This document shows positions 1,235 to 62,545 of a stretch of DNA of 64,000 nucleotides, piece by piece. Source of the DNA: Clostridia bacterium (GTDB taxonomy: Bacteria > Bacillota > Clostridia > JAAYHZ01); NCBI GenBank assembly GCA_050950825.1, contig JBMNIH010000008.1, forward strand, positions 113,288 to 177,287. The letters are read 5' to 3'. Each line of letters begins with the position of its first letter. Position 1 is the first letter of the stretch. A program made the position numbers and the translations under genes. Under the pieces are notes generated by a model. The model saw only the letters and a program-made list of their open reading frames with translations, did no database searches and had not been told where the DNA came from.

Positions 1235-3160
1235 TTAATTGTCAAAATAGCGGTCGAAGCTGCCTTTGAAAAACAGGCGAAGCTTCTTGTTCTTCCTTAA
1301 GCTGTCCCATACGTTGCACAGGTAAGGAATCAAGTAGTAATCCAACCCGAAAGCCCGTCCTGCGCCGCCCATGGTTGCAATCGCAGCAAAAGGCATCCAC
1401 CAAGAGCTTTGGTACAAGCCGGTAGAAGTGACGAACATGGCCAACAAACCTACCGAAACCAAAGAAGACAGGAAGGTAAACGCACCGCCGATAAGCAACA
1501 AGCCTACGCCGATTTCTAAAATAACAACCAAGACCTGGAAGAACATGGCGATTCCGTCTCCCGCAAGGACCACGTTTTTCAAGAACCAAGGAACCAAATT
1601 AAAGTTACCGAATTGGAATATATCGATTTTGGCAAACATTGTGGAAGACAACGGTTCTCCTTGGAGCATATAGGTTTCCTTACCGATCAAGAAGTTAATA
1701 ATATGAAGCTTCAGCTCAAATATTTCGTCGATTCTTTTCGCAACCGCTTGCGCCGAAGTGGCTCCCGTCACACCGTCCGCAGCCATGCCCAAGAAGGAAG
1801 CCAGCTTGGGCGATGTGAACCAACCTTCTTTTACCTTATTTATGCCTTCTATCAACCAAGTAACCCCAAGGAAGATTCGAAGCGGTACAAGCCACCAAGC
1901 CTGAACTCGTGTAGACCAATGCTTTTCCAAAAAGTGCTTGCTTTGACGTCTTTCCAATACTTCGTGATACAAATATCGCGCGACTCCGGCAAAACCGACG
2001 ATTCCGAAAAGATAATGCATGTTCACCAGGTATTTCATGATAAGGGACAGCCATGCCGGAAGCTTTTTGCCTAATATCTCCGCAACGGCGTAGTAATTGC
2101 CGACGCTTACCATGGTACCGCGCATTTTGACTTCTACGATTTCCTGTTCTTTGCCTTGGACATCGTTCCAAATGTTTACCGCCACGCCGTGGCCGGTTTG
2201 GATGGCGTTTTCCACCATCGCCGGATACACACGATCATCCGCATGGCAGATCAAACCGGATACGTCTCCCGCCGCATAGACATTCGGGTAGTCGGTACGG
2301 CAGTATTCGTCCACTTTTAACCTTTGGGTGGGACAAGCCTTTTCGATGGGTAATTCGTCCACATCATAGCATGCCCGTACTCCGGCGGCCCAGATCAAGG
2401 TTTGCGTTTTAATGAAGTCGTTTTGGGTCATAAAGCCTTCCGGAGTTACTTCTTTTACCGAGGTTTTCAAGAGGATTTCCACATTCAGCTTCTTTTCCAA
2501 ATATTTGTGGGCTTTTATCGCACTATCCTCGCTTAAATTGTTTAATATACGAGGCAGCAAATCCGCGAGGATCAAACGAACTTCGCTTTTGTGAATCCGG
2601 TATTCTTTACAAAGGGATTTCACCCAACGGGCGATTTCGCCGATGACCTCTACTCCGGTGAAACCGGCGCCGCTTACAACGAAGGTAAGCAAAGCGCTTC
2701 TTTTTTCCGGATCCTCTTCGTTGGATGCTTTGGCAAAGCAATGGATAATGTGCTCACGAATTCTTACGGCATCATCCAAGGACCATAGGGTAAATCCGTA
2801 TTCCTTCAAGCCTTTAATACCGTACAGATTCGGTGAACTGCCTATGGCCATAACCAAGTAATCGTACGGATATTCCTTGGTATCCGAATAAACCTTTTTG
2901 TTATCGAAATCGTATTTGGTTATTTTGTCGCATACCGTATTCACGCCGGTAAACTTAAAAATTTTATTCAACGGAATTTTTACCGCATCTTCGGATACTC
3001 GATTTCCTGCAACCTCGTGGATCTCCGTTAAAAGTGTGTGGTAACTATTCTTATCAATAATGGTAATATCCAATTCTTTTCCTTTGTTCAGCTTGTTGAG
3101 TGTCAACGCCGTTTCAACGCCTGCGTAACCCGCTCCGATAATGACTACCTTTTTACTCAT
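1235..3160 (-). CDS. Type II NADH dehydrogenase with C-terminal DoxX-like membrane domain (Ndh2 of flavin-based EET)
   Basis: Two Rossmann motifs (GAGYAG, GAGFTGVE), AAGD motif, C-terminal TM region ending GAGRAFGLD. Confidence 0.9.
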   Translation of the reverse strand: MSKKVVIIGAGYAGVETALTLNKLNKGKELDITIIDKNSYHTLLTEIHEVAGNRVSEDAVKIPLNKIFKFTGVNTVCDKITKYDFDNKKVYSDTKEYPYDYLVMAIGSSPNLYGIKGLKEYGFTLWSLDDAVRIREHIIHCFAKASNEEDPEKRSALLTFVVSGAGFTGVEVIGEIARWVKSLCKEYRIHKSEVRLILADLLPRILNNLSEDSAIKAHKYLEKKLNVEILLKTSVKEVTPEGFMTQNDFIKTQTLIWAAGVRACYDVDELPIEKACPTQRLKVDEYCRTDYPNVYAAGDVSGLICHADDRVYPAMVENAIQTGHGVAVNIWNDVQGKEQEIVEVKMRGTMVSVGNYYAVAEILGKKLPAWLSLIMKYLVNMHYLFGIVGFAGVARYLYHEVLERRQSKHFLEKHWSTRVQAWWLVPLRIFLGVTWLIEGINKVKEGWFTSPKLASFLGMAADGVTGATSAQAVAKRIDEIFELKLHIINFLIGKETYMLQGEPLSSTMFAKIDIFQFGNFNLVPWFLKNVVLAGDGIAMFFQVLVVILEIGVGLLLIGGAFTFLSSLVSVGLLAMFVTSTGLYQSSWWMPFAAIATMGGAGRAFGLDYYLIPYLCNVWDSLRKNKKLRLFFKGSFDRYFDN

Positions 3161-3238
3161 ATCTCACTCCCCTATTCCGTTTACGATTCGATCCTACGCT
3201 GTTCTCTTCATAAATAACGTTGAGGACCGATCGTGATA

Positions 3239-4189
3239 TTAATACCTTATAAAATTATGAAATATTATGGATACACTGAACAACAGTCCCGTCAGCATAT
3301 AGATTTTGACCGTCTTGTCATTGGACGATACCAGTTTCGGAATGTCATTCATGTGTAACTTGCAATTCTTAACGGCTCCTACGGCCATGGGCACCGTGAG
3401 CCAAGAAAGAAGCCAAAGAAGATTTCTTGTGTACAGCACGATGGGTATCACCGATAAATAGGCAAAAGCGAAAATCAATCCGTACACAATCACTCCTTTT
3501 TCTTTTCCAATACGAACCAAACCGTTTTTCTTACCGCTTCTCTTGTCGGCCTCGTAATCAGGATACTCGTTGATCCACAGAACGTTGGCAATCAAAAAAC
3601 CGATAGGAATCGAAACCAACAAAGGCAGTACATCAAACCTTCCGGCCATGACCAAATACATCCCGTTTGTGATTAAAGGCCCGAAGGTGGTTCCTACAAC
3701 CGCTTCCCCGAACCCTCTGTAGCAAAGCTTGAACGGGGGCAAGGAATAGATAATCGCCAAGAAAAATCCGGCCAAACCGACCCAAATAACCTTCGGCTCC
3801 CGAAACAGCACAAAAACGATACCGATGACCGCCGCCAAAGCCATGGTGACAACGCCGATCCAAGCGGATTGATTTACCGTCAGCAATCCGTCCACAATGG
3901 TTTTCTTACCGCCGGAAAAGGGCGTTCGGTGCTCCGTATCCACATATCGATCCGCTCCGGAGATATAGTCGACGCATTCGTTAATGGCATTCTTGCCGAT
4001 TTCAATCAAATATACGCCTACGAAAGCCAAAACCATCCAGAAAAGCCGGAATTCTTTTGCATACGACACCGACAAAAGGACACCTACAACCATAGGCACC
4101 GTAGAAGCGACCCAAATTTTCGGATCCGCCACCTGCCAAAAGCCTTTGTAAAAGGATTTGGATTTATCGGTTACTTGCATAATGGCCAT
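3239..4189 (-). CDS. menA: 1,4-dihydroxy-2-naphthoate prenyltransferase (UbiA family, DmkA/MenA)
   Basis: NECVDYISGAD and NEYPDYEADKRSGK motifs, multiple TM helices. Confidence 0.85.
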   Translation of the reverse strand: MAIMQVTDKSKSFYKGFWQVADPKIWVASTVPMVVGVLLSVSYAKEFRLFWMVLAFVGVYLIEIGKNAINECVDYISGADRYVDTEHRTPFSGGKKTIVDGLLTVNQSAWIGVVTMALAAVIGIVFVLFREPKVIWVGLAGFFLAIIYSLPPFKLCYRGFGEAVVGTTFGPLITNGMYLVMAGRFDVLPLLVSIPIGFLIANVLWINEYPDYEADKRSGKKNGLVRIGKEKGVIVYGLIFAFAYLSVIPIVLYTRNLLWLLSWLTVPMAVGAVKNCKLHMNDIPKLVSSNDKTVKIYMLTGLLFSVSIIFHNFIRY

Positions 4190-4760
4190 CCCTTCCTTTC
4201 AAATCCGCCTTTTCGGTATCCGACTCGCAGCTTTTATGCCAATCGGCCATCACGTTATCAAAAACAGGGATCTTACTCATATGTTGAAGCAGGCTTTTGG
4301 CAGCAACCCCGGTGATGACGCCGGTGATAAGAGACGATAACAGCAAAAAAGGCAGATATCCGAATACCGCTGTCGACTTTAACATCAATGATGCGGCCAA
4401 GATCTGTCCGGTGTTGTGGGCGGCAGCGCCGCCTACGCTGATACCGATCATGGAGAAAAACATCGGATAACCGAATCTCAGCAAAATCATAACCGTAAGA
4501 GCCAGCATGCCGCCGGTCAGTGAAAAAATCAAAGATGTGAGACTTCCGAATAACAAAGAAACGACGATGCAGCGTACAAGAGTGATAAAAAAACTCGATT
4601 GTATGCCTAAACAGAAAAGTGCAAACAAGGTGACAATATTCGCCAAACCTAATTTGATACCCGGTAACGGAATAAACACGTCAAGAGGAATCATCCGTTC
4701 AAAATAGGATATAACGATCGCCATGGCTATTAATATTCCGTTTATGACCATCTTTCTCAT
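4164..4760 (-). CDS. Gx transporter family membrane protein (EetB-like)
   Basis: PLPGIKLGLAN and GAAAHNTGQ signatures, hydrophobic. Confidence 0.85.
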   Translation of the reverse strand: MRKMVINGILIAMAIVISYFERMIPLDVFIPLPGIKLGLANIVTLFALFCLGIQSSFFITLVRCIVVSLLFGSLTSLIFSLTGGMLALTVMILLRFGYPMFFSMIGISVGGAAAHNTGQILAASLMLKSTAVFGYLPFLLLSSLITGVITGVAAKSLLQHMSKIPVFDNVMADWHKSCESDTEKADLKGRDGHYASNR

Positions 4761-5379: not shown

Positions 5380-6771
5380 GTTATAGTCTTAAGTAGTGGT
5401 GTAAATTTCGTGGAGTATGCTTGACAAGAGTAACCACCATATGATTTTTACTTTATTAGATTCAAACAAAAAAGATAAAGTAAAGGAGGTCATACCGTGG
5501 CTACTAAAAATAGAATGTCACTTTTAGAGCAACTTAGCAAGTATGTTGTTGAAAAAGATAAGGATTTTTTAAAGGAAGCGCTTACGCTGTTAATCAATGC
5601 TCTGATGGATGCGGAAGTTACGTCGATGATCGGTGCGGAAAAGTATGAACGAAGTGAGAATCGGAACAATCATCGTAATGGATACCGACAAAGAGAATGG
5701 GATACTCGCCTTGGTACGTTACAGTTAAGCATACCCAAATTGAGGCATGGAAGCTATTTCCCAAGTTTATTAGAGCCTCGGAAGATGTCAGAAAAAGCTT
5801 TATTAAATGTGGTGCAGGAAGCTTATGTGCACGGTGTCAGCACTAGAAAAGTAGATGAGTTGGTAGAATCTCTCGGAATTAAAGGGATGGATAAAAGCGA
5901 AGTTTCCGGGATCAGCAAGCAATTGGATGGCTTTGTCACCGAGTTCAAGAACCGCATACTCGAAGGAGAATACCCTTATCTTTGGCTTGATGCTACTTTT
6001 CCTAAGGTTCGTGAAGGTGGAAGAGTATGCAGTATGGCACTTGTAATAGCCGTAGGTGTAAATCAGTCCGGTGAACGAGAGATACTAGGTTTTGATGTCG
6101 GCATGAGTGAAGACGGAGCTTTTTGGGAAGAGTTTCTGAGAAAGCTTGTAGCAAGGGGACTTAAAGGGGTGAAGTTAGTTGTAAGTGATGCCCATGAGGG
6201 GTTAAAATCCGCCATAAAGAAGGTTTTAACCGGGAGCACATGGCAAAGATGCCGAGTACATTTTATGCGGAACGTATTAAGCCAAGTGCCGAAGAAGTGC
6301 CAAGGAATGGTCTCCTCAATCATACGCACCATTTTTGCACAAAATGATCAGGAATCCGCAAGGGAACAGCTAAGACATGTGGTAGATGAACTGAGGGGGC
6401 GTTTTCCGAAAGCAATGGAAATCCTTGAAGCAGCCGAAGAGGATATATTGGCGTATATGGCCTTTCCCCGTGAGCATTGGATACAGATTCATTCTACGAA
6501 TCCATTGGAACGGCTTAATCGTGAGATACGCCGTCGGACTGATGTTGTATGCATATTTCCTAATCGTGATGCCGTTATTCGCCTTGTAGGTACTATGCTT
6601 ATGGAGCAGAACGATGAATGGCAGGTAGGGCGGCGATACTTCAGTTTAGAATCTATGGAAAAGCTTACACAGGCTAATGGGTTTTCATTAGCTCCGATTG
6701 CTATCTTACATAAATGAAACGAAGGGAAGATAAAGTAGAAATCATTTTACACCACTTGACAAGACACTATC
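5380..6771 (+). mobile_element. IS256-family element inserted just inside the IS30 end
   Basis: 26-bp imperfect IRs ending ...AGTGGTGTAAA; 8-bp TSD CCACTTTG at 5372-5379 and 6772-6779. Confidence 0.92.
5497..6717 (+). CDS. IS256 (mutator) transposase
   Basis: RNGYR, GVSTRKV, SDAHEGL, WQRCRVHF, STNPLERLN motifs. Confidence 0.95.
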   Translation: MATKNRMSLLEQLSKYVVEKDKDFLKEALTLLINALMDAEVTSMIGAEKYERSENRNNHRNGYRQREWDTRLGTLQLSIPKLRHGSYFPSLLEPRKMSEKALLNVVQEAYVHGVSTRKVDELVESLGIKGMDKSEVSGISKQLDGFVTEFKNRILEGEYPYLWLDATFPKVREGGRVCSMALVIAVGVNQSGEREILGFDVGMSEDGAFWEEFLRKLVARGLKGVKLVVSDAHEGLKSAIKKVLTGSTWQRCRVHFMRNVLSQVPKKCQGMVSSIIRTIFAQNDQESAREQLRHVVDELRGRFPKAMEILEAAEEDILAYMAFPREHWIQIHSTNPLERLNREIRRRTDVVCIFPNRDAVIRLVGTMLMEQNDEWQVGRRYFSLESMEKLTQANGFSLAPIAILHK

Positions 6772-7030
6772 CCACTTTGCAAGGTTAAATTCCATCCATC
6801 CTAAAAAATTATTGCATAAGGTGGGATAAAATTATTCTAACAAGGAAGAATTGTTACTATGGAAGGATTTTTTCTGCAAAAAGCAAGTGAATGCTTCATT
6901 TATTACCTGTTTTTTTGCATAGCAAACAAACCGTGTTGATTTCTTCACTTTTTTGCAAAGGTAAAATCCACTACGGTTAAAAGGTAATAATTGGCAGAAC
7001 GATGCCTTTCGGATAATTATTAATACTTTA

Positions 7031-8649: not shown

Positions 8650-9946
8650 TACTTTAATAAATCGGGATTCAAACAAATATTATTCGGTTCAATGAGTTTG
8701 GATCCCAATTTTTTTATTACTTCTTCACCAAACATAAATTTAAACACTTCATGAGGAGTTCTATCATTTAAAGATAATCCGGAGTAAGAATTTATGTGGT
8801 TCATTACAAGATTAATATCTTCCTGCACGAGATTATCGAAGCTTGTTCCTTTCGGTAAGATCTTCCTCAGTTCCCCGTGATTTTTTTCTTGTGATGCCCT
8901 TTGATAAGCTGAATACGAATCGCAATAAAAGACCTTAGTTCTAACTTCTCCGGTTACTCGGTAGTATTCAATCGCTTTCGGGTTCGTAAATTCACTGCCC
9001 TTGTCAGCCAAAAGTATGGGAAACAGTTTTCGAAACGTGTCAAGACCCAAAAGCTCTGTCAGTTTGTCGAAAACATCGATTACCGATTGCGAATCGTTCG
9101 AGTCTCGTAAAAATGCAAGCATAAATTCGGTTTTAACAAAATGCAACGTCATCAGCACTTTACCGCCTTTTGTACCAAGCACCGAATCCATTTCCACGAC
9201 GAAAGGAGCATTAACATCTGCCATCACTTTTTTGTAATCATCATACGTGCGTCCCTATTCGGCATTCGCGATCCACTTTATGAGTTACGCCCGGTTTTTT
9301 GCGAGATCGATATCTTACTTTTCTGGGCATATCAATATTACGAGCCGTGAAGAGGCCGTAGTCAACGTAATTGTATAACGTCCTTTCGCTGTACATAATT
9401 TTATCGGCATTGTTTACGCAAATATGATGAATGGACTGGCCTTTTTTCAGAAGAGGTGATATCACGGTATCCAATTGTTGCAACGATTTTTCATCGATTG
9501 CCACACCGGAACGTGATTCCGAACGTGTATATTCATATTCTTTGTCTGCAACTTTAGCGTCGTATATCATTTTTTGCAATGAGCACTTGCGTTTTGTCGA
9601 GCATCCGTTACATACGTAAGGCGGTTTTTCGAGAGCATCACACTTCTGTTCTACGAAAGCATCACAGAAGTCATTGCACAGTCTGCATATGCTACAGATC
9701 CCTTTTTCGCAAACTCCGCTTTTTTTACATAGCGAACGTTTATGACAACCGATCCTGTACTTACATGCATTGTACGATTGGCCCGAAAGCACCTGTCTTT
9801 CGTTCTACCCGATGTCGACGAACTTCTTTGGATATTGTCGTGCAATCTTTACCGAGTATTTTACCGATTTCCTTAAAAGATTTTCCCTCCTTCAATAAGT
9901 TTTCGATATCTTTCCTGTCTGATAACGTCAAATGAGTTGACATCAT
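8650..9946 (-). pseudogene. IS30 transposase with Cys-rich insert, two apparent +1 frameshifts
   Basis: HTH start (HLTLSDRKDIE), VEMDSV, DKGSEF, EKNHGELR across three ORFs. Removing one G at ~9781 and at ~9253 restores a single frame. Confidence 0.85.
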
Positions 9947-10052
9947 TATGGTTCTCCTTTCAAAATCATTTTGAAAGACATCGTTCTTTTTTAATGATTG
10001 CACTGATATCGGTAAGTAATACATGTTTTGTTAGTTTTTAGTTTTAGATCAT

Positions 10053-10182
10053 GACAAAAGTCCATCCGGTTAAAAAGACAAGCAATGGCCTTTTGCGGCA
10101 TAAACGGCCTACTTCCCGGCAAAGCCGGGTCCCTTCCATTTATTCCACAGTGCCATGCTTTTCTTTTTTCGCCATGCTTTTG
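10053..10182 (-). other. Long imperfect hairpin with RS_B-like box TTTATGCCGCAAAA, upstream of the IS30 transposase
   Basis: Minus strand GCATGGC-AC-TGTGG-A-ATAAATG...CGTTTAT-G-CCGCA-AAAG-GCCATTGC; same duplex module as at 47938, 51796 and 62378. Confidence 0.65.
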
Positions 10183-10493
10183 AACATATACCGAGGGATG
10201 AAGAGGAGATGCAAGCGACCAATTTCTCAACGTCCCCCTCGTCTTTTATATCGTAGCATGGCGAACACCGTATTACTTTTATATTTGTTTAGGTAATGAT
10301 AGTCTCAGGAATCAGCTAAAAATGCATGCTTTCTTTACTAGTAATTTTTTGTATTTGCGTTTGCATTAGTAAAGTCCACAATATTTTTATTAATATTTTT
10401 GCAAAAGTAAAATCAACTGCAGCTTTCGAAGGGTGGACTTTACTTTTTCGATTAAAGACCGAATTACATGCCTTGAATTTTGAAAAAAGGGTG

Positions 10494-10540: not shown

Positions 10541-10614
10541 GCGGGTGTAGTTCAATGGTAGAACATCAGCCTTCCAAGCTGATTGCGAGGGTTCGATTCC
10601 CTTCACCCGCTCCA
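10541..10614 (+). tRNA. tRNA-Gly(TCC)
   Basis: Cloverleaf, anticodon arm TCAGC-CT-TCC-AA-GCTGA, GGTTCGATTCC, encoded CCA. Confidence 0.97.
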
Positions 10615-10627
10615 TAATCAACCACAT

Positions 10628-10704
<77 letters not shown>

Positions 10705-47937: not shown

Positions 47938-48097
47938 TTTATGCCGCGAAAGCTGTTGATAATGAGTACATGGCATGTTAGGCTGATTGCCAGGCATCAC
48001 CACTCCAGCGTAAGACATATCGATAAAACAATGGGGATGGCTCTGATGCATATAAACAGGCCATGAGAGGCTCGTTGTCAACAGACCGTGGAATAAA
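47938..48097 (+). other. Covarying hairpin with RS_B-like box TTTATGCCGCGAAA (ssoA-like)
   Basis: Homologous to 62378-62542 with compensatory changes; lies 3' of the transposase, on the opposite strand. Confidence 0.7.
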
Positions 48098-48119: not shown

Positions 48120-49334
48120 CTAGGCAGCAGGGTTTCTATCCTTGGTTTTCTTGTTTTCCATACTTTGATAATATAAATCCATATCAAAGTATTTACGGCC
48201 TGCTTGCCACTTTTCATCTTGTTCCATAAGCAGGGCACCTATCAAGCGGATTACGGATGCCTCATTAGGGAAGATGCGTATTACCCGCTCTCGCCGCCTC
48301 ACTTCCTGATTGAGCCGTTCCACGCCGTTTGTAGTACGTAGTCGCTTTCGATATTTCAGGGGCACTGCCAGAATCGCCGTGACATCATCGAAGGATTCGT
48401 CTAATAGAGTAGCAGCTTTTGGAGCTATCGTCCCGTATTTACCAAGGAGCTGATCTCTGACCTTTCGAGCGCTATCTAAGTCAACAGCTTCATACAGCTC
48501 ACGAAGATCTTCTTTGATAACAGGCTGTAGTGCTTTAGGAGTGTGATCCAGCATGTTCCTTGAAAAATGGGTTTGACATCGTTGCCAGGTTGCTCCTTGA
48601 AAATGTCTCTTGACTGCATTGACAAGCCCCTTGTGATTGTCGGATGTAATTAAGCGAACGTCTTTTAATCCCCTTTCCTTTAGGGATGCGAAGAATTCCC
48701 CCCAACTGCTTTCAGTTTCTGTGTTAGCCACCTGAAAGCCAATAATTTCGCGATAACCTTCTTCGTTGACACCTACGGCGATGAGTAATCCTCTTGACTC
48801 AACCCGATGATCTTCACGCACCTTAAGGTAAAGAGCATCTACAATTAGAAAGGGATAATGACTTTCAAGCGGTCTTGTCCTAAAAGCGTGAACCATGGGA
48901 TCCAGCTGCTTACAAAGAGCTGAAACTGTGGATTTAGAAAACGATTTACCACAGAGCTCTTGTGTGATGGCTTCAACTTTACGAGTTGAAACCCCATTAA
49001 TCACCATCTCCATCATGGCCAGTATCAAGGCCTGTTCACTGCGTTGATATCGGGCAAACAGCTCTGTAGAAAACTTACCATTGCGATGCCTGGGGACCCG
49101 CAGAGTAAGTGTGCCAACTCGAGTAGTCATCTGTCTGTCTCGAAAACCATTGCGGTAGGCAGTTCTTTCTTCAGTTCTCTCATAGGGTTCAGCTCCTACC
49201 TGTTCTGAAGATTGGGCTAATAGTACCTGGTTGAAGATTTCCTCTAATAGCTTGGAAAATGCTTCATCCCTGCCGTTTGATAAAAATAGTCCGTGCAAAA
49301 GTTTTTCGGTTATTGTAATATTAAACTGAGCCAT
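48120..49334 (-). CDS. IS256 transposase
   Basis: RNGFR, GVSTRKV, SDNHKGL, WQRCQTHF, TTNGVERLN. Confidence 0.95.
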   Translation of the reverse strand: MAQFNITITEKLLHGLFLSNGRDEAFSKLLEEIFNQVLLAQSSEQVGAEPYERTEERTAYRNGFRDRQMTTRVGTLTLRVPRHRNGKFSTELFARYQRSEQALILAMMEMVINGVSTRKVEAITQELCGKSFSKSTVSALCKQLDPMVHAFRTRPLESHYPFLIVDALYLKVREDHRVESRGLLIAVGVNEEGYREIIGFQVANTETESSWGEFFASLKERGLKDVRLITSDNHKGLVNAVKRHFQGATWQRCQTHFSRNMLDHTPKALQPVIKEDLRELYEAVDLDSARKVRDQLLGKYGTIAPKAATLLDESFDDVTAILAVPLKYRKRLRTTNGVERLNQEVRRRERVIRIFPNEASVIRLIGALLMEQDEKWQAGRKYFDMDLYYQSMENKKTKDRNPAA

Positions 49335-51795: not shown

Positions 51796-51955
51796 TTTAT
51801 GCCGCGAAAGCTGTTGATAATGAGTACATGGCATGTTAGGCTGATTGCCAGGCATCACCACTCCAGCGTAAGACATATCGATAAAACAATGGGGATGGCT
51901 CTGATGCATATAAACAGGCCATGAGAGGCTCGTTGTCAACAGACCGTGGAATAAA
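51796..51955 (+). other. Second copy of the IS256 ssoA-like hairpin
   Basis: Same sequence as 47938-48097. Confidence 0.7.
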
Positions 51956-51977: not shown

Positions 51978-53192
51978 CTAGGCAGCAGGGTTTCTATCCT
52001 TGGTTTTCTTGTTTTCCATACTTTGATAATATAAATCCATATCAAAGTATTTACGGCCTGCTTGCCACTTTTCATCTTGTTCCATAAGCAGGGCACCTAT
52101 CAAGCGGATTACGGATGCCTCATTAGGGAAGATGCGTATTACCCGCTCTCGCCGCCTCACTTCCTGATTGAGCCGTTCCACGCCGTTTGTAGTACGTAGT
52201 CGCTTTCGATATTTCAGGGGCACTGCCAGAATCGCCGTGACATCATCGAAGGATTCGTCTAATAGAGTAGCAGCTTTTGGAGCTATCGTCCCGTATTTAC
52301 CAAGGAGCTGATCTCTGACCTTTCGAGCGCTATCTAAGTCAACAGCTTCATACAGCTCACGAAGATCTTCTTTGATAACAGGCTGTAGTGCTTTAGGAGT
52401 GTGATCCAGCATGTTCCTTGAAAAATGGGTTTGACATCGTTGCCAGGTTGCTCCTTGAAAATGTCTCTTGACTGCATTGACAAGCCCCTTGTGATTGTCG
52501 GATGTAATTAAGCGAACGTCTTTTAATCCCCTTTCCTTTAGGGATGCGAAGAATTCCCCCCAACTGCTTTCAGTTTCTGTGTTAGCCACCTGAAAGCCAA
52601 TAATTTCGCGATAACCTTCTTCGTTGACACCTACGGCGATGAGTAATCCTCTTGACTCAACCCGATGATCTTCACGCACCTTAAGGTAAAGAGCATCTAC
52701 AATTAGAAAGGGATAATGACTTTCAAGCGGTCTTGTCCTAAAAGCGTGAACCATGGGATCCAGCTGCTTACAAAGAGCTGAAACTGTGGATTTAGAAAAC
52801 GATTTACCACAGAGCTCTTGTGTGATGGCTTCAACTTTACGAGTTGAAACCCCATTAATCACCATCTCCATCATGGCCAGTATCAAGGCCTGTTCACTGC
52901 GTTGATATCGGGCAAACAGCTCTGTAGAAAACTTACCATTGCGATGCCTGGGGACCCGCAGAGTAAGTGTGCCAACTCGAGTAGTCATCTGTCTGTCTCG
53001 AAAACCATTGCGGTAGGCAGTTCTTTCTTCAGTTCTCTCATAGGGTTCAGCTCCTACCTGTTCTGAAGATTGGGCTAATAGTACCTGGTTGAAGATTTCC
53101 TCTAATAGCTTGGAAAATGCTTCATCCCTGCCGTTTGATAAAAATAGTCCGTGCAAAAGTTTTTCGGTTATTGTAATATTAAACTGAGCCAT
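51978..53192 (-). CDS. IS256 transposase
   Basis: Identical protein to 48120-49334. Confidence 0.95.
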   Translation of the reverse strand: MAQFNITITEKLLHGLFLSNGRDEAFSKLLEEIFNQVLLAQSSEQVGAEPYERTEERTAYRNGFRDRQMTTRVGTLTLRVPRHRNGKFSTELFARYQRSEQALILAMMEMVINGVSTRKVEAITQELCGKSFSKSTVSALCKQLDPMVHAFRTRPLESHYPFLIVDALYLKVREDHRVESRGLLIAVGVNEEGYREIIGFQVANTETESSWGEFFASLKERGLKDVRLITSDNHKGLVNAVKRHFQGATWQRCQTHFSRNMLDHTPKALQPVIKEDLRELYEAVDLDSARKVRDQLLGKYGTIAPKAATLLDESFDDVTAILAVPLKYRKRLRTTNGVERLNQEVRRRERVIRIFPNEASVIRLIGALLMEQDEKWQAGRKYFDMDLYYQSMENKKTKDRNPAA

Positions 53193-62374: not shown

Positions 62375-62545
62375 GCGTTTATGCCGCGAAAGCCTCTTGA
62401 CAATGAGAGCCCGGCATGTTAGGCTATCTGACCGGGCATCAACCACCTCCAGAGCCCTTCTGCCTTGTTCAGCATGGGGGATGCCTCTGATGCCAGCAAA
62501 CATGCCGGCAGAGGCTCGTTGTCAAGAGGATCGTGGAATAAATGC
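62375..62545 (+). other. Covarying hairpin with RS_B-like box TTTATGCCGCGAAA (ssoA-like) 3' of IS3 orfB
   Basis: Homologous to the IS256 hairpins; stems CCTCTTGACAATGAG/CTCGTTGTCAAGAGG, CCGGCATGTT/AACATGCCGG, GCATCA/TGATGC. Confidence 0.72.

Follow-up and report, generated by a model that had tools for sequence, protein, structure and literature searches.

Single-strand promoters are known from a few enterobacterial plasmids. In one of the closest described systems, a hairpin 5' of M.EcoGIX on the IncI1 plasmid pESBL was identified as a class 3 single-stranded DNA promoter, its start having been mapped by 5' RACE, and the accessible part of that report adds that the M.EcoGIX operon is induced early in transconjugants, that the hairpin is conserved in F, that the class 3 promoter is unlike other hairpins and that single-strand promoters are inactive as duplex (PMC12672017, 2025). 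Transcripts from single-strand promoters are described, in the available portions of two reports, as serving both as mRNA and as primers (PMC7736820, PMC12672017). A second relevant system is the ssoA origin, for which the accessible text of one source describes RSB as the loop-distal part that binds RNA polymerase and CS-6, located in the loop, as the site that ends the primer (PMC8860593). With subscription journals and figures outside the search, the literature yielded no account of a connection between RSB and leading-region promoters, of such hairpins within insertion sequences (ISs) or of a link between single-stranded IS DNA and priming by RNA polymerase. Literature searches with the core sequence strings described below returned nothing relevant, and the strings had no occurrence in 8 supplement files of Samuel et al. 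2024, whose texts were possibly incomplete. A 2025 AEM paper on an IS inverted repeat that changes the host range of a rolling-circle vector was considered and set aside, no RSB link being shown in the part available.

The DNA analysed here is a stretch of 64,000 nucleotides from a Clostridia bacterium (contig JBMNIH010000008.1, positions 113,288 to 177,287), referred to as the window. A preliminary description had reported a hairpin upstream of an IS30-family transposase gene that carries the RSB-type duplex of neighboring IS3 and IS256 elements with the two strands in the opposite order. The minus strand at positions 10053-10182 reads exactly as given there, which confirms that the hairpin exists. 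Its core runs GCATGGC-AC-TGTGG-A-ATAAATG on the 5' side, followed by a 30-nt apical part, and CGTTTAT-G-CCGCA-AAAG-GCCATTGC on the 3' side, and the stem is extended by AAAAAGA/TCTTTTT and CAAAAG/CTTTTG. The hairpin and its carrier comprise the following features:

10053..10182, minus strand: whole hairpin (outer stems, internal loop, RSB-type core and apical hairpin), from read-out, folding and covariance model R1 (76.9 bits, E 4.9e-21)
10137..10151, minus strand: 5' core arm (b arm), with the AC side of the internal loop, TGTGG, an unpaired A and ATAAATG, from read-out and alignment A2
10107..10136, minus strand: apical part with a CCCGGC/GCCGGG hairpin, whose motif GGAGGGnCCCGGC..GCCGGGAGG is also present in Clostridia and Proteobacteria members of the family described below
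10090..10106, minus strand: 3' core arm (a arm), RSB-like, with CGTTTAT, an unpaired G, CCGCA and AAAG, by comparison with the RSB string of pSELNU1
10057..10085, minus strand: putative promoter boxes on the a strand, TTGCTT (10085-10080) and GACTTT (10062-10057) separated by a 17-nt spacer, by analogy with the family survey and the sso-type modules
8650..10449, minus strand: IS30-family element of ~1800 bp, one of three genomic copies, from BLAST against the genome and flank comparison
8650..9946, minus strand: transposase frame, split into three frames, from three-frame translation and alignment of the three copies

Folded as RNA, positions 10053-10182 gave -55.7 kcal/mol (z -3.8), a value equaled in 0 of 200 shuffles; folded as DNA they gave -28.4 kcal/mol (z -4.3), and the opposite strand -23.3. 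The two core 12-mers in the IS30 order occurred once in the window and in none of 100 dinucleotide shuffles, so the match is not due to chance. Across the 3.55-Mb genome, the two-arm core was found by pattern search solely in the three copies of the IS30 element, and R1 recovered the same three copies (76.9-78.4 bits, E ~1e-20). The a-arm 17-mer was also seen at C4:44184-44205, inside a coding sequence ...RAVYAAKGAGRNRV with a GGDEF-like end; it has no partner arm and was rejected as a module, being a chance match via a protein motif. No relevant Rfam family was matched by the window, by either hairpin region or by any of three proteobacterial loci, at gathering thresholds or at E values up to 10; the best match was Atu_Ti4 (14 bits, E 6.2).

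We compared the hairpin with each of the described systems. On the F plasmid, R1 gave a single match above noise (41.5 bits, E 5e-11), located 80 nt upstream of a DNA methylase gene and on its template strand, and on pESBL-EA11 it gave 40.9 bits at the homologous place, again 80 nt upstream of the methylase gene and on its template strand:

L178:3986-4087 (NC_002483 53985-54086), minus strand: RSB-core hairpin of F
L180:2602-2703: RSB-core hairpin of pESBL-EA11

Both plasmids carry a diverged member of the same hairpin family upstream of an M.EcoGIX-type methylase gene. The class 3 promoter and the IS30 hairpin share the core ACCGTGGAATA ... TATGCCGCGAAAG, the arm order and closure on the RSB side. 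They differ in that the A/T stem is shorter on the plasmid, where the hairpin drives an operon, whereas the IS30 version has no gene behind it, resides in a Firmicute insertion sequence and carries a U-A variant pair and a Clostridia-type apical hairpin. The expected hairpin was not recovered when the pESBL stretch was folded by minimum free energy (z -2.1). With respect to ssoA, the a arm (TTATGCCGCAAAAGGCC) is identical to the RSB printed for pSELNU1 (TTATGCCGAGAAAATTT) at 11 of 17 bases, including TTATGCCG and AAA, which makes the name 'RS_B' chosen in the preliminary description a fair one. In ssoA, however, RSB is loop-distal and CS-6 lies in the loop, whereas in the IS30 hairpin the RSB duplex is loop-proximal and the arm order is inverted; moreover, no TAGCG (CS-6 being TAGCGT/TAGCGA) is present within 10053-10182, and ssoA-type origins belong to rolling-circle plasmids rather than to a chromosomal IS. 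Lastly, Frpo/ssi hairpins (class 1; F and ColIb-P9) have the same topology, with an A/T-rich apex and transcription that exits toward the leading genes, and dual use as promoter and primer is reported for them as for class 3. The core was absent from Frpo1 and Frpo2 (upstream of ssb and ygeA in F), which showed no sequence similarity and scored at most 8.6 bits with R1.

BLAST of the hairpin against plasmids identified replicons of Shinella, Paracoccus and Xanthomonas with the same permuted arm order and matched no Gram-positive origins. The exact pattern of two 12-mers was found in at least 122 stretches of a one-genome-per-species collection; by record title, the matches listed came from Proteobacteria (alpha-, beta- and gamma-), Acidobacteriota, Bacteroidota, Gemmatimonadota, Chloroflexota and Firmicutes and represented 117 distinct elements after duplicates were removed. 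Exact matches were also seen in viral contigs (6 permuted and 2 sso-type). The permutation had been presented as a rearrangement peculiar to the module of IS3 and IS256, a view that does not hold, since in conjugative leading regions of diverse phyla the IS30 topology is the usual one.

For analysis of covariation, we aligned 80 diverse elements with the window (alignment A2, 81 members). Invariance of the core in A2, including all b-arm columns except a compensatory C/T, follows by construction from the search pattern, the exception being the pair beside the internal loop. That pair was C-G in 77 members and U-A in 4 of 81 and was never unpaired, so the compensatory change claimed for the window (CCGCA/TGTGG) is real. 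The outer stem covaries: all 12 of its pairs showed changes on both sides, doubly changed cells numbered 294 versus 120 +/- 7.9 in shuffles (0 of 500 shuffles as high), and 88.3% of outer-stem cells were paired versus 36-49% with slid partners. A strand bias was also evident: the core has two invariant G.T pairs, G.T exceeded A.C in the outer stem (67 vs 37), and in both the window and L054 the folded strand was favored over its complement by 5-6 kcal/mol. A scan of the window's class with the model rather than the pattern gave matches in 7 of 151 genomes (G000 included), among which compensatory changes were also seen in the core itself (CATGG/CCGTG in L193 and L197; ATAAG/CTTAT in L195 and L196).

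The IS30 hairpin has the arms A(C/T)YGTGGAATA... and ...TATGCCGCRAAAG, the G/A mismatch and the AAAG x AC internal loop of this family, is closed on the RSB side and has a base-paired, covarying outer stem; it is not the template of a gene starting within ~100 nt on its 5' side. Its membership of the family is well supported. The U-A pair and the apical GGAGGGnCCCGGC..GCCGGGAGG group it with Clostridia loci (L041, L049, L054, L078 and L121) and not with the modules of its own genome, which bears out the earlier proposal of independent acquisition and indicates that the hairpin arrived in the IS30 element as a ready-made family member. An origin as the remnant of a tandem module was considered and rejected, the apical hairpin and variant pair matching distant Frpo-type members rather than local modules.

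To describe the genes around family members, 143 long frames from loci L026-L105, among the matches listed, were compared with Pfam, and side and strand were tabulated. Genes for ArdA (6/6), RadC (2/2), DUF932 (3/3), DUF6573 (1/1) and ParB-HTH (1/1) all lay on the 5' side and on the complementary strand in these loci, as did 6 of 9 N6_N4 methylase genes; the other three methylase genes were on the 3' side, two of them within element arrays (L046 and L047). Drawn gene starts were 13-108 nt from the hairpin where the two did not overlap; several frames overlap the element and have their domains on the 5' side. TrwC and MobA relaxases, VirB4 and TrbM were also found near family members, and the gene set is that of conjugative leading regions. 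In conjugative members, the hairpin lies just upstream of leading-region genes and the folded strand is their template strand, which is the geometry of single-strand promoters as set out in the available part of one report (PMC11541004). Four loci of Steroidobacter and Gammaproteobacteria (L046, L047, L058 and L095) contain two to three permuted hairpins in a row, 550-1100 nt apart and each before a small gene (methylase, DUF932), and look like single-strand promoter arrays of a leading region.

Promoter-like boxes occur on one arm only. TTGAY or TTTAC was found 3-5 nt after (G/A)AAAG on the a arm of 54 of 111 elements and on the b arm of none (0/111). Among the 54 box-bearing elements, nAnnnT peaked at spacers of 14-15 nt (35 elements), shorter than the canonical 17. 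The remaining 57 elements include some with the box further out (Steroidobacter type) or weaker (alpha-proteobacterial type), and in the Clostridia subgroup (L049 and L054) no spacing gave a convincing -10 box. By analogy, the TTGCTT and GACTTT of the window's IS30 copy would be weak matches to -35 and -10 boxes.

The same genome carries modules of the opposite topology, here called sso-type, in which the a arm comes first:

62378..62542, plus strand: sense-strand sso-type module that closely follows orfB of an IS3 element
47938..48097, plus strand: antisense-strand sso-type module that closely follows the stop codon of an IS256 transposase gene, with a second copy at 51796-51955
Contigs C8 and C6, outside the window: modules with ISLre2-family transposase genes, at L181:5198-5361 + 5408-6934 and L183:2726-2890 + 2901-4403

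As the preliminary description stated, the IS3 and IS256 hairpins have the same base as the IS30 hairpin with the arms reversed (CGTTTATGCCGCGAAAG ... A(C/T)CGTGGAATAAA). A genome-wide pattern search identified 29 modules with the a arm first (a arm, ~130 nt, b arm) versus 3 permuted ones, all three in IS30. The 29 modules represent at least six sequence types with compensatory stems, and every one lies just past the stop of a transposase gene, on the sense strand in IS3 and ISLre2 (two types, including the 13-copy type) and on the antisense strand in IS256 (three types). The 13-copy type and one single-copy type directly follow transposase genes of the ISLre2 family, not IS256. In the window, the IS256 copies at 48120-49334 and 51978-53192 have one module each, whereas a further copy (5497-6717, plus strand) has none and gave no match in the pattern searches, again as first noted. 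The a arm of sso-type modules contains a TTGACA-like box, a 17-18-nt spacer ending in TGT and then TAGGCT. Over both arms, the IS3-type module aligns with an unannotated intergenic stretch of small Bacillus plasmids, namely pFL7 (MOBV, 7.9 kb), whose sso this stretch may be, and a B. cereus plasmid.

The carrier of the permuted hairpin was identified as an IS30-family element from an N-terminal HTH_38 domain (5.9e-17) and from matches of NF033563 (IS30 transposase) to the two later frames, with 75.6 and 23.3 bits, under the 80-bit cut-off because the frame is split. At 9784 and 9255, the window copy differs in length by one base from the other two genomic copies, which splits its frame. In each of those two, an insertion of ~1.36 kb interrupts the element (C2:462860-464215 and C2:531274-532637), and the joints show overlaps of 11 and 4 bases. 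In none of the three copies is the transposase frame both open and uninterrupted, and conservation among the copies is therefore uninformative on function. The hairpin lies ~100-240 nt upstream of the start codon (9946), within an unusually long 5' untranslated region of ~500 nt, and 270-400 nt from the left end of the element. Between the hairpin and the IS end at 10449 there is no gene; the transposase gene follows on the 3' side and shares the strand of the hairpin.

How could one duplex be retained in two topologies? In both, a single strand presents the same linear order of RSB, 3-5 nt, a TTGACA-like box, a spacer and a TAnnnT-like box. With the a arm as non-template strand, RSB would take the place of an UP element, followed by the -35-like and -10-like boxes. 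In the permuted form, the complement lies 5' of the a arm, and the hairpin would be closed at its RSB end, such that polymerase exits through the open end; this would be the promoter or long-primer form. In the sso form, the complement lies 3', closure would fall downstream of the -10 box, and polymerase would run into the loop and make a short primer. Because the a-arm order is the same and the closure side would set whether the polymerase exits the hairpin or enters the loop, this model may explain why the duplex was kept 'regardless of topology'. The related suggestion, that the duplex is a structural site in single-stranded nucleic acid, is supported by its conservation and strand specificity and by relatives that include a reported single-strand promoter hairpin for RNA polymerase.

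In the IS30 element, it is the transposase-sense strand that folds, and for this reason the transposase gene cannot be driven by the hairpin on single-stranded DNA. Host RNA polymerase would instead run ~270-400 nt to the left end and, since no gene lies before that end, the product would most likely prime synthesis of the complementary strand on single-stranded IS DNA. In the established model of copy-out transposition of the IS3, IS30 and IS256 type, one strand is circularized and displaced and its complement must be made. The single-stranded template may be this displaced or circularized strand, or the IS may ride on transferred single-stranded DNA; on a circular single strand, the orientation of the module relative to the transposase gene would be neutral. 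We hold with moderate confidence that the IS30 hairpin is a single-strand DNA promoter or priming hairpin of the RSB-core family carried in an IS30-family element. Its role in the IS is what we infer from this arrangement, with RNA-polymerase-dependent priming on single-stranded IS DNA as the most likely, though unproven, function. Against a role in priming are the lack of a gene downstream within the IS, unlike in conjugative members, the weak boxes, the absence of the hairpin from most IS30 relatives and the absence of an intact transposase frame here.

The last two points bear on whether the hairpin does anything for its carrier. It could be a passenger or fossil, captured from a leading region or another IS into the long 5' region of the IS30 element and useless to it, an explanation that we consider unlikely yet the strongest of the alternatives. 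We searched 29 loci with IS30 homologues, drawn from 400 genomes of the window's class (46 genomes with homologues, G000 included), and none of the 29 matched R1, 20 of them holding at least 300 nt upstream of a closed frame. This upholds the earlier view that the hairpin is optional, and such sporadic occurrence is as expected of a passenger, as are the broken frames of all copies in this genome and the unusual length of the 5' region. The same can be said of the many unrelated IS families that family members adjoin in varying orientation: the permuted form was found next to IstB/IS21 (3 loci), IS110 (2), IS3 (3), ISLre2 (4), IS256 (1), ISNCY (1) and IS30 (1, in addition to this genome), as well as with ISXac2 on Xanthomonas plasmids, and a transposase gene adjoins the element in 7 of 8 Firmicutes loci among the pattern-scan matches listed whose neighbors were scanned. 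Orientation relative to the transposase gene varied in these contexts (R-, R+ and L+; sense or antisense), which fits a circular single strand, although passengers would show the same.

Two diverged relatives, whose RSB modules share the position and strand of the window's hairpin, argue against mere capture. L054 encodes an intact 445-aa IS30 transposase (NF033563, 99.1 bits; 57% identical over the C-terminal part) and has the same hairpin on the same strand, 119 nt upstream of the gene; its 18-bp outer stem differs in sequence and is still paired. In L162 (G049:C232; 51% identical in the C-terminal part), whose contig roughly equals the IS in length, an sso-type module occupies the corresponding position, 100-250 nt upstream and likewise on the same strand. 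The same hairpin in one relative and the other topology at the same place in another fit the view that the duplex matters and not its topology. In addition, the 29 further modules in IS3, IS256 and ISLre2, of at least six types with compensatory stems, would be hard to account for by accident.

Less probable still, at a level we would call quite unlikely, is that the a arm is an ordinary double-strand promoter of the transposase gene and that the partner arm is incidental or regulatory. From a distance of 100-250 nt upstream, the a arm is directed toward the start codon in the window as well as in L054 and L162, and the boxes of L162 are TTGATA-18-TAAAAT. Metatranscriptome contigs from two studies (9840-10063 and 9887-10041) run from the 3' foot of the hairpin into the transposase gene, which is weak evidence given that their depth is low and that they may derive from DNA; the hairpin core was crossed by no contig, in RNA runs and in a DNA-like run alike. 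A duplex promoter, however, needs no covarying partner arm, no invariant G.T pairs and no unpaired G/A. The a arm of IS256 modules reads antisense into the transposase gene, that of IS3 and ISLre2 reads out of the element, and conjugative members have their gene on the other side, behind the b arm. Inactivity as duplex, as stated in the accessible part of the class 3 report (PMC12672017), also speaks against a double-strand promoter. A structured RNA, with the hairpin forming either in the 5' leader of transposase mRNA or in a small antisense transcript, is very improbable, since, despite RNA-like G.U pairs, the RNA fold z score of -3.8 and an RNA-library contig at 10152-10305 (low in depth and possibly DNA), no Rfam family matches, the folded strand of conjugative members is antisense to the following gene, so that the RNA of that gene excludes the fold, and the core matches the RSB box of DNA origins.

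Under the preferred reading, a single-strand promoter or priming hairpin of the RSB-core family, several points are new. The class 3 hairpin is one member of a family found in about six phyla, whose core is almost invariant and matches the RSB box in rolling-circle origins of Gram-positive bacteria. Promoter and origin forms are distinguished solely by the side on which the hairpin is closed, and both occur inside insertion sequences. As a tentative extension, possible rather than probable, ISs of many families (IS30, IS3, IS256, ISLre2, IS21, IS110 and ISNCY) may repeatedly have taken up RSB-core signals for RNA-polymerase-dependent single-strand priming, in both topologies, because their transposition would pass through a free single-stranded, probably circular, copy that needs conversion to duplex. 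If true, one core would unite rolling-circle sso, leading-region single-strand promoters and IS-borne hairpins. Second-strand synthesis of the copy-out IS circle is an unsettled question that an IS-borne, polymerase-dependent priming site would make directly testable, and covariance model R1 can readily be used to mark leading regions, and the strand that is transferred, in genomes that lack annotation.

Further observations concern the left end of the IS30 element and its surroundings. The ends of the element were set by comparison of the three copies, with no clear terminal inverted repeat seen; the left end (10400-10449, minus strand) contains an imperfect internal palindrome, AAAAGTAAAGTCCAC ... 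GTTGATTTTACTTTT. In a comparison of IS30 5' region DNA with 60 relatives, recurrence was limited to the first ~55 nt of the left end, at contig ends of G023 and without the hairpin. Similar left ends were found at 10 places in G023 (L005, L010 and L013-L020), mostly at contig ends, and L005 has no adjoining IS30 gene. Two tRNA genes (10541-10611 and 10628-10701, plus strand) begin ~90 nt past the left end, in the same direction as transcription exiting the hairpin. Lastly, 15 public DNA runs contained 0.81-0.90 of the words sampled from the IS30 5' region (9900-10460), and these runs were labeled as bioreactor, anaerobic digester, biogas fermenter, landfill or sludge metagenome, or simply as metagenome.
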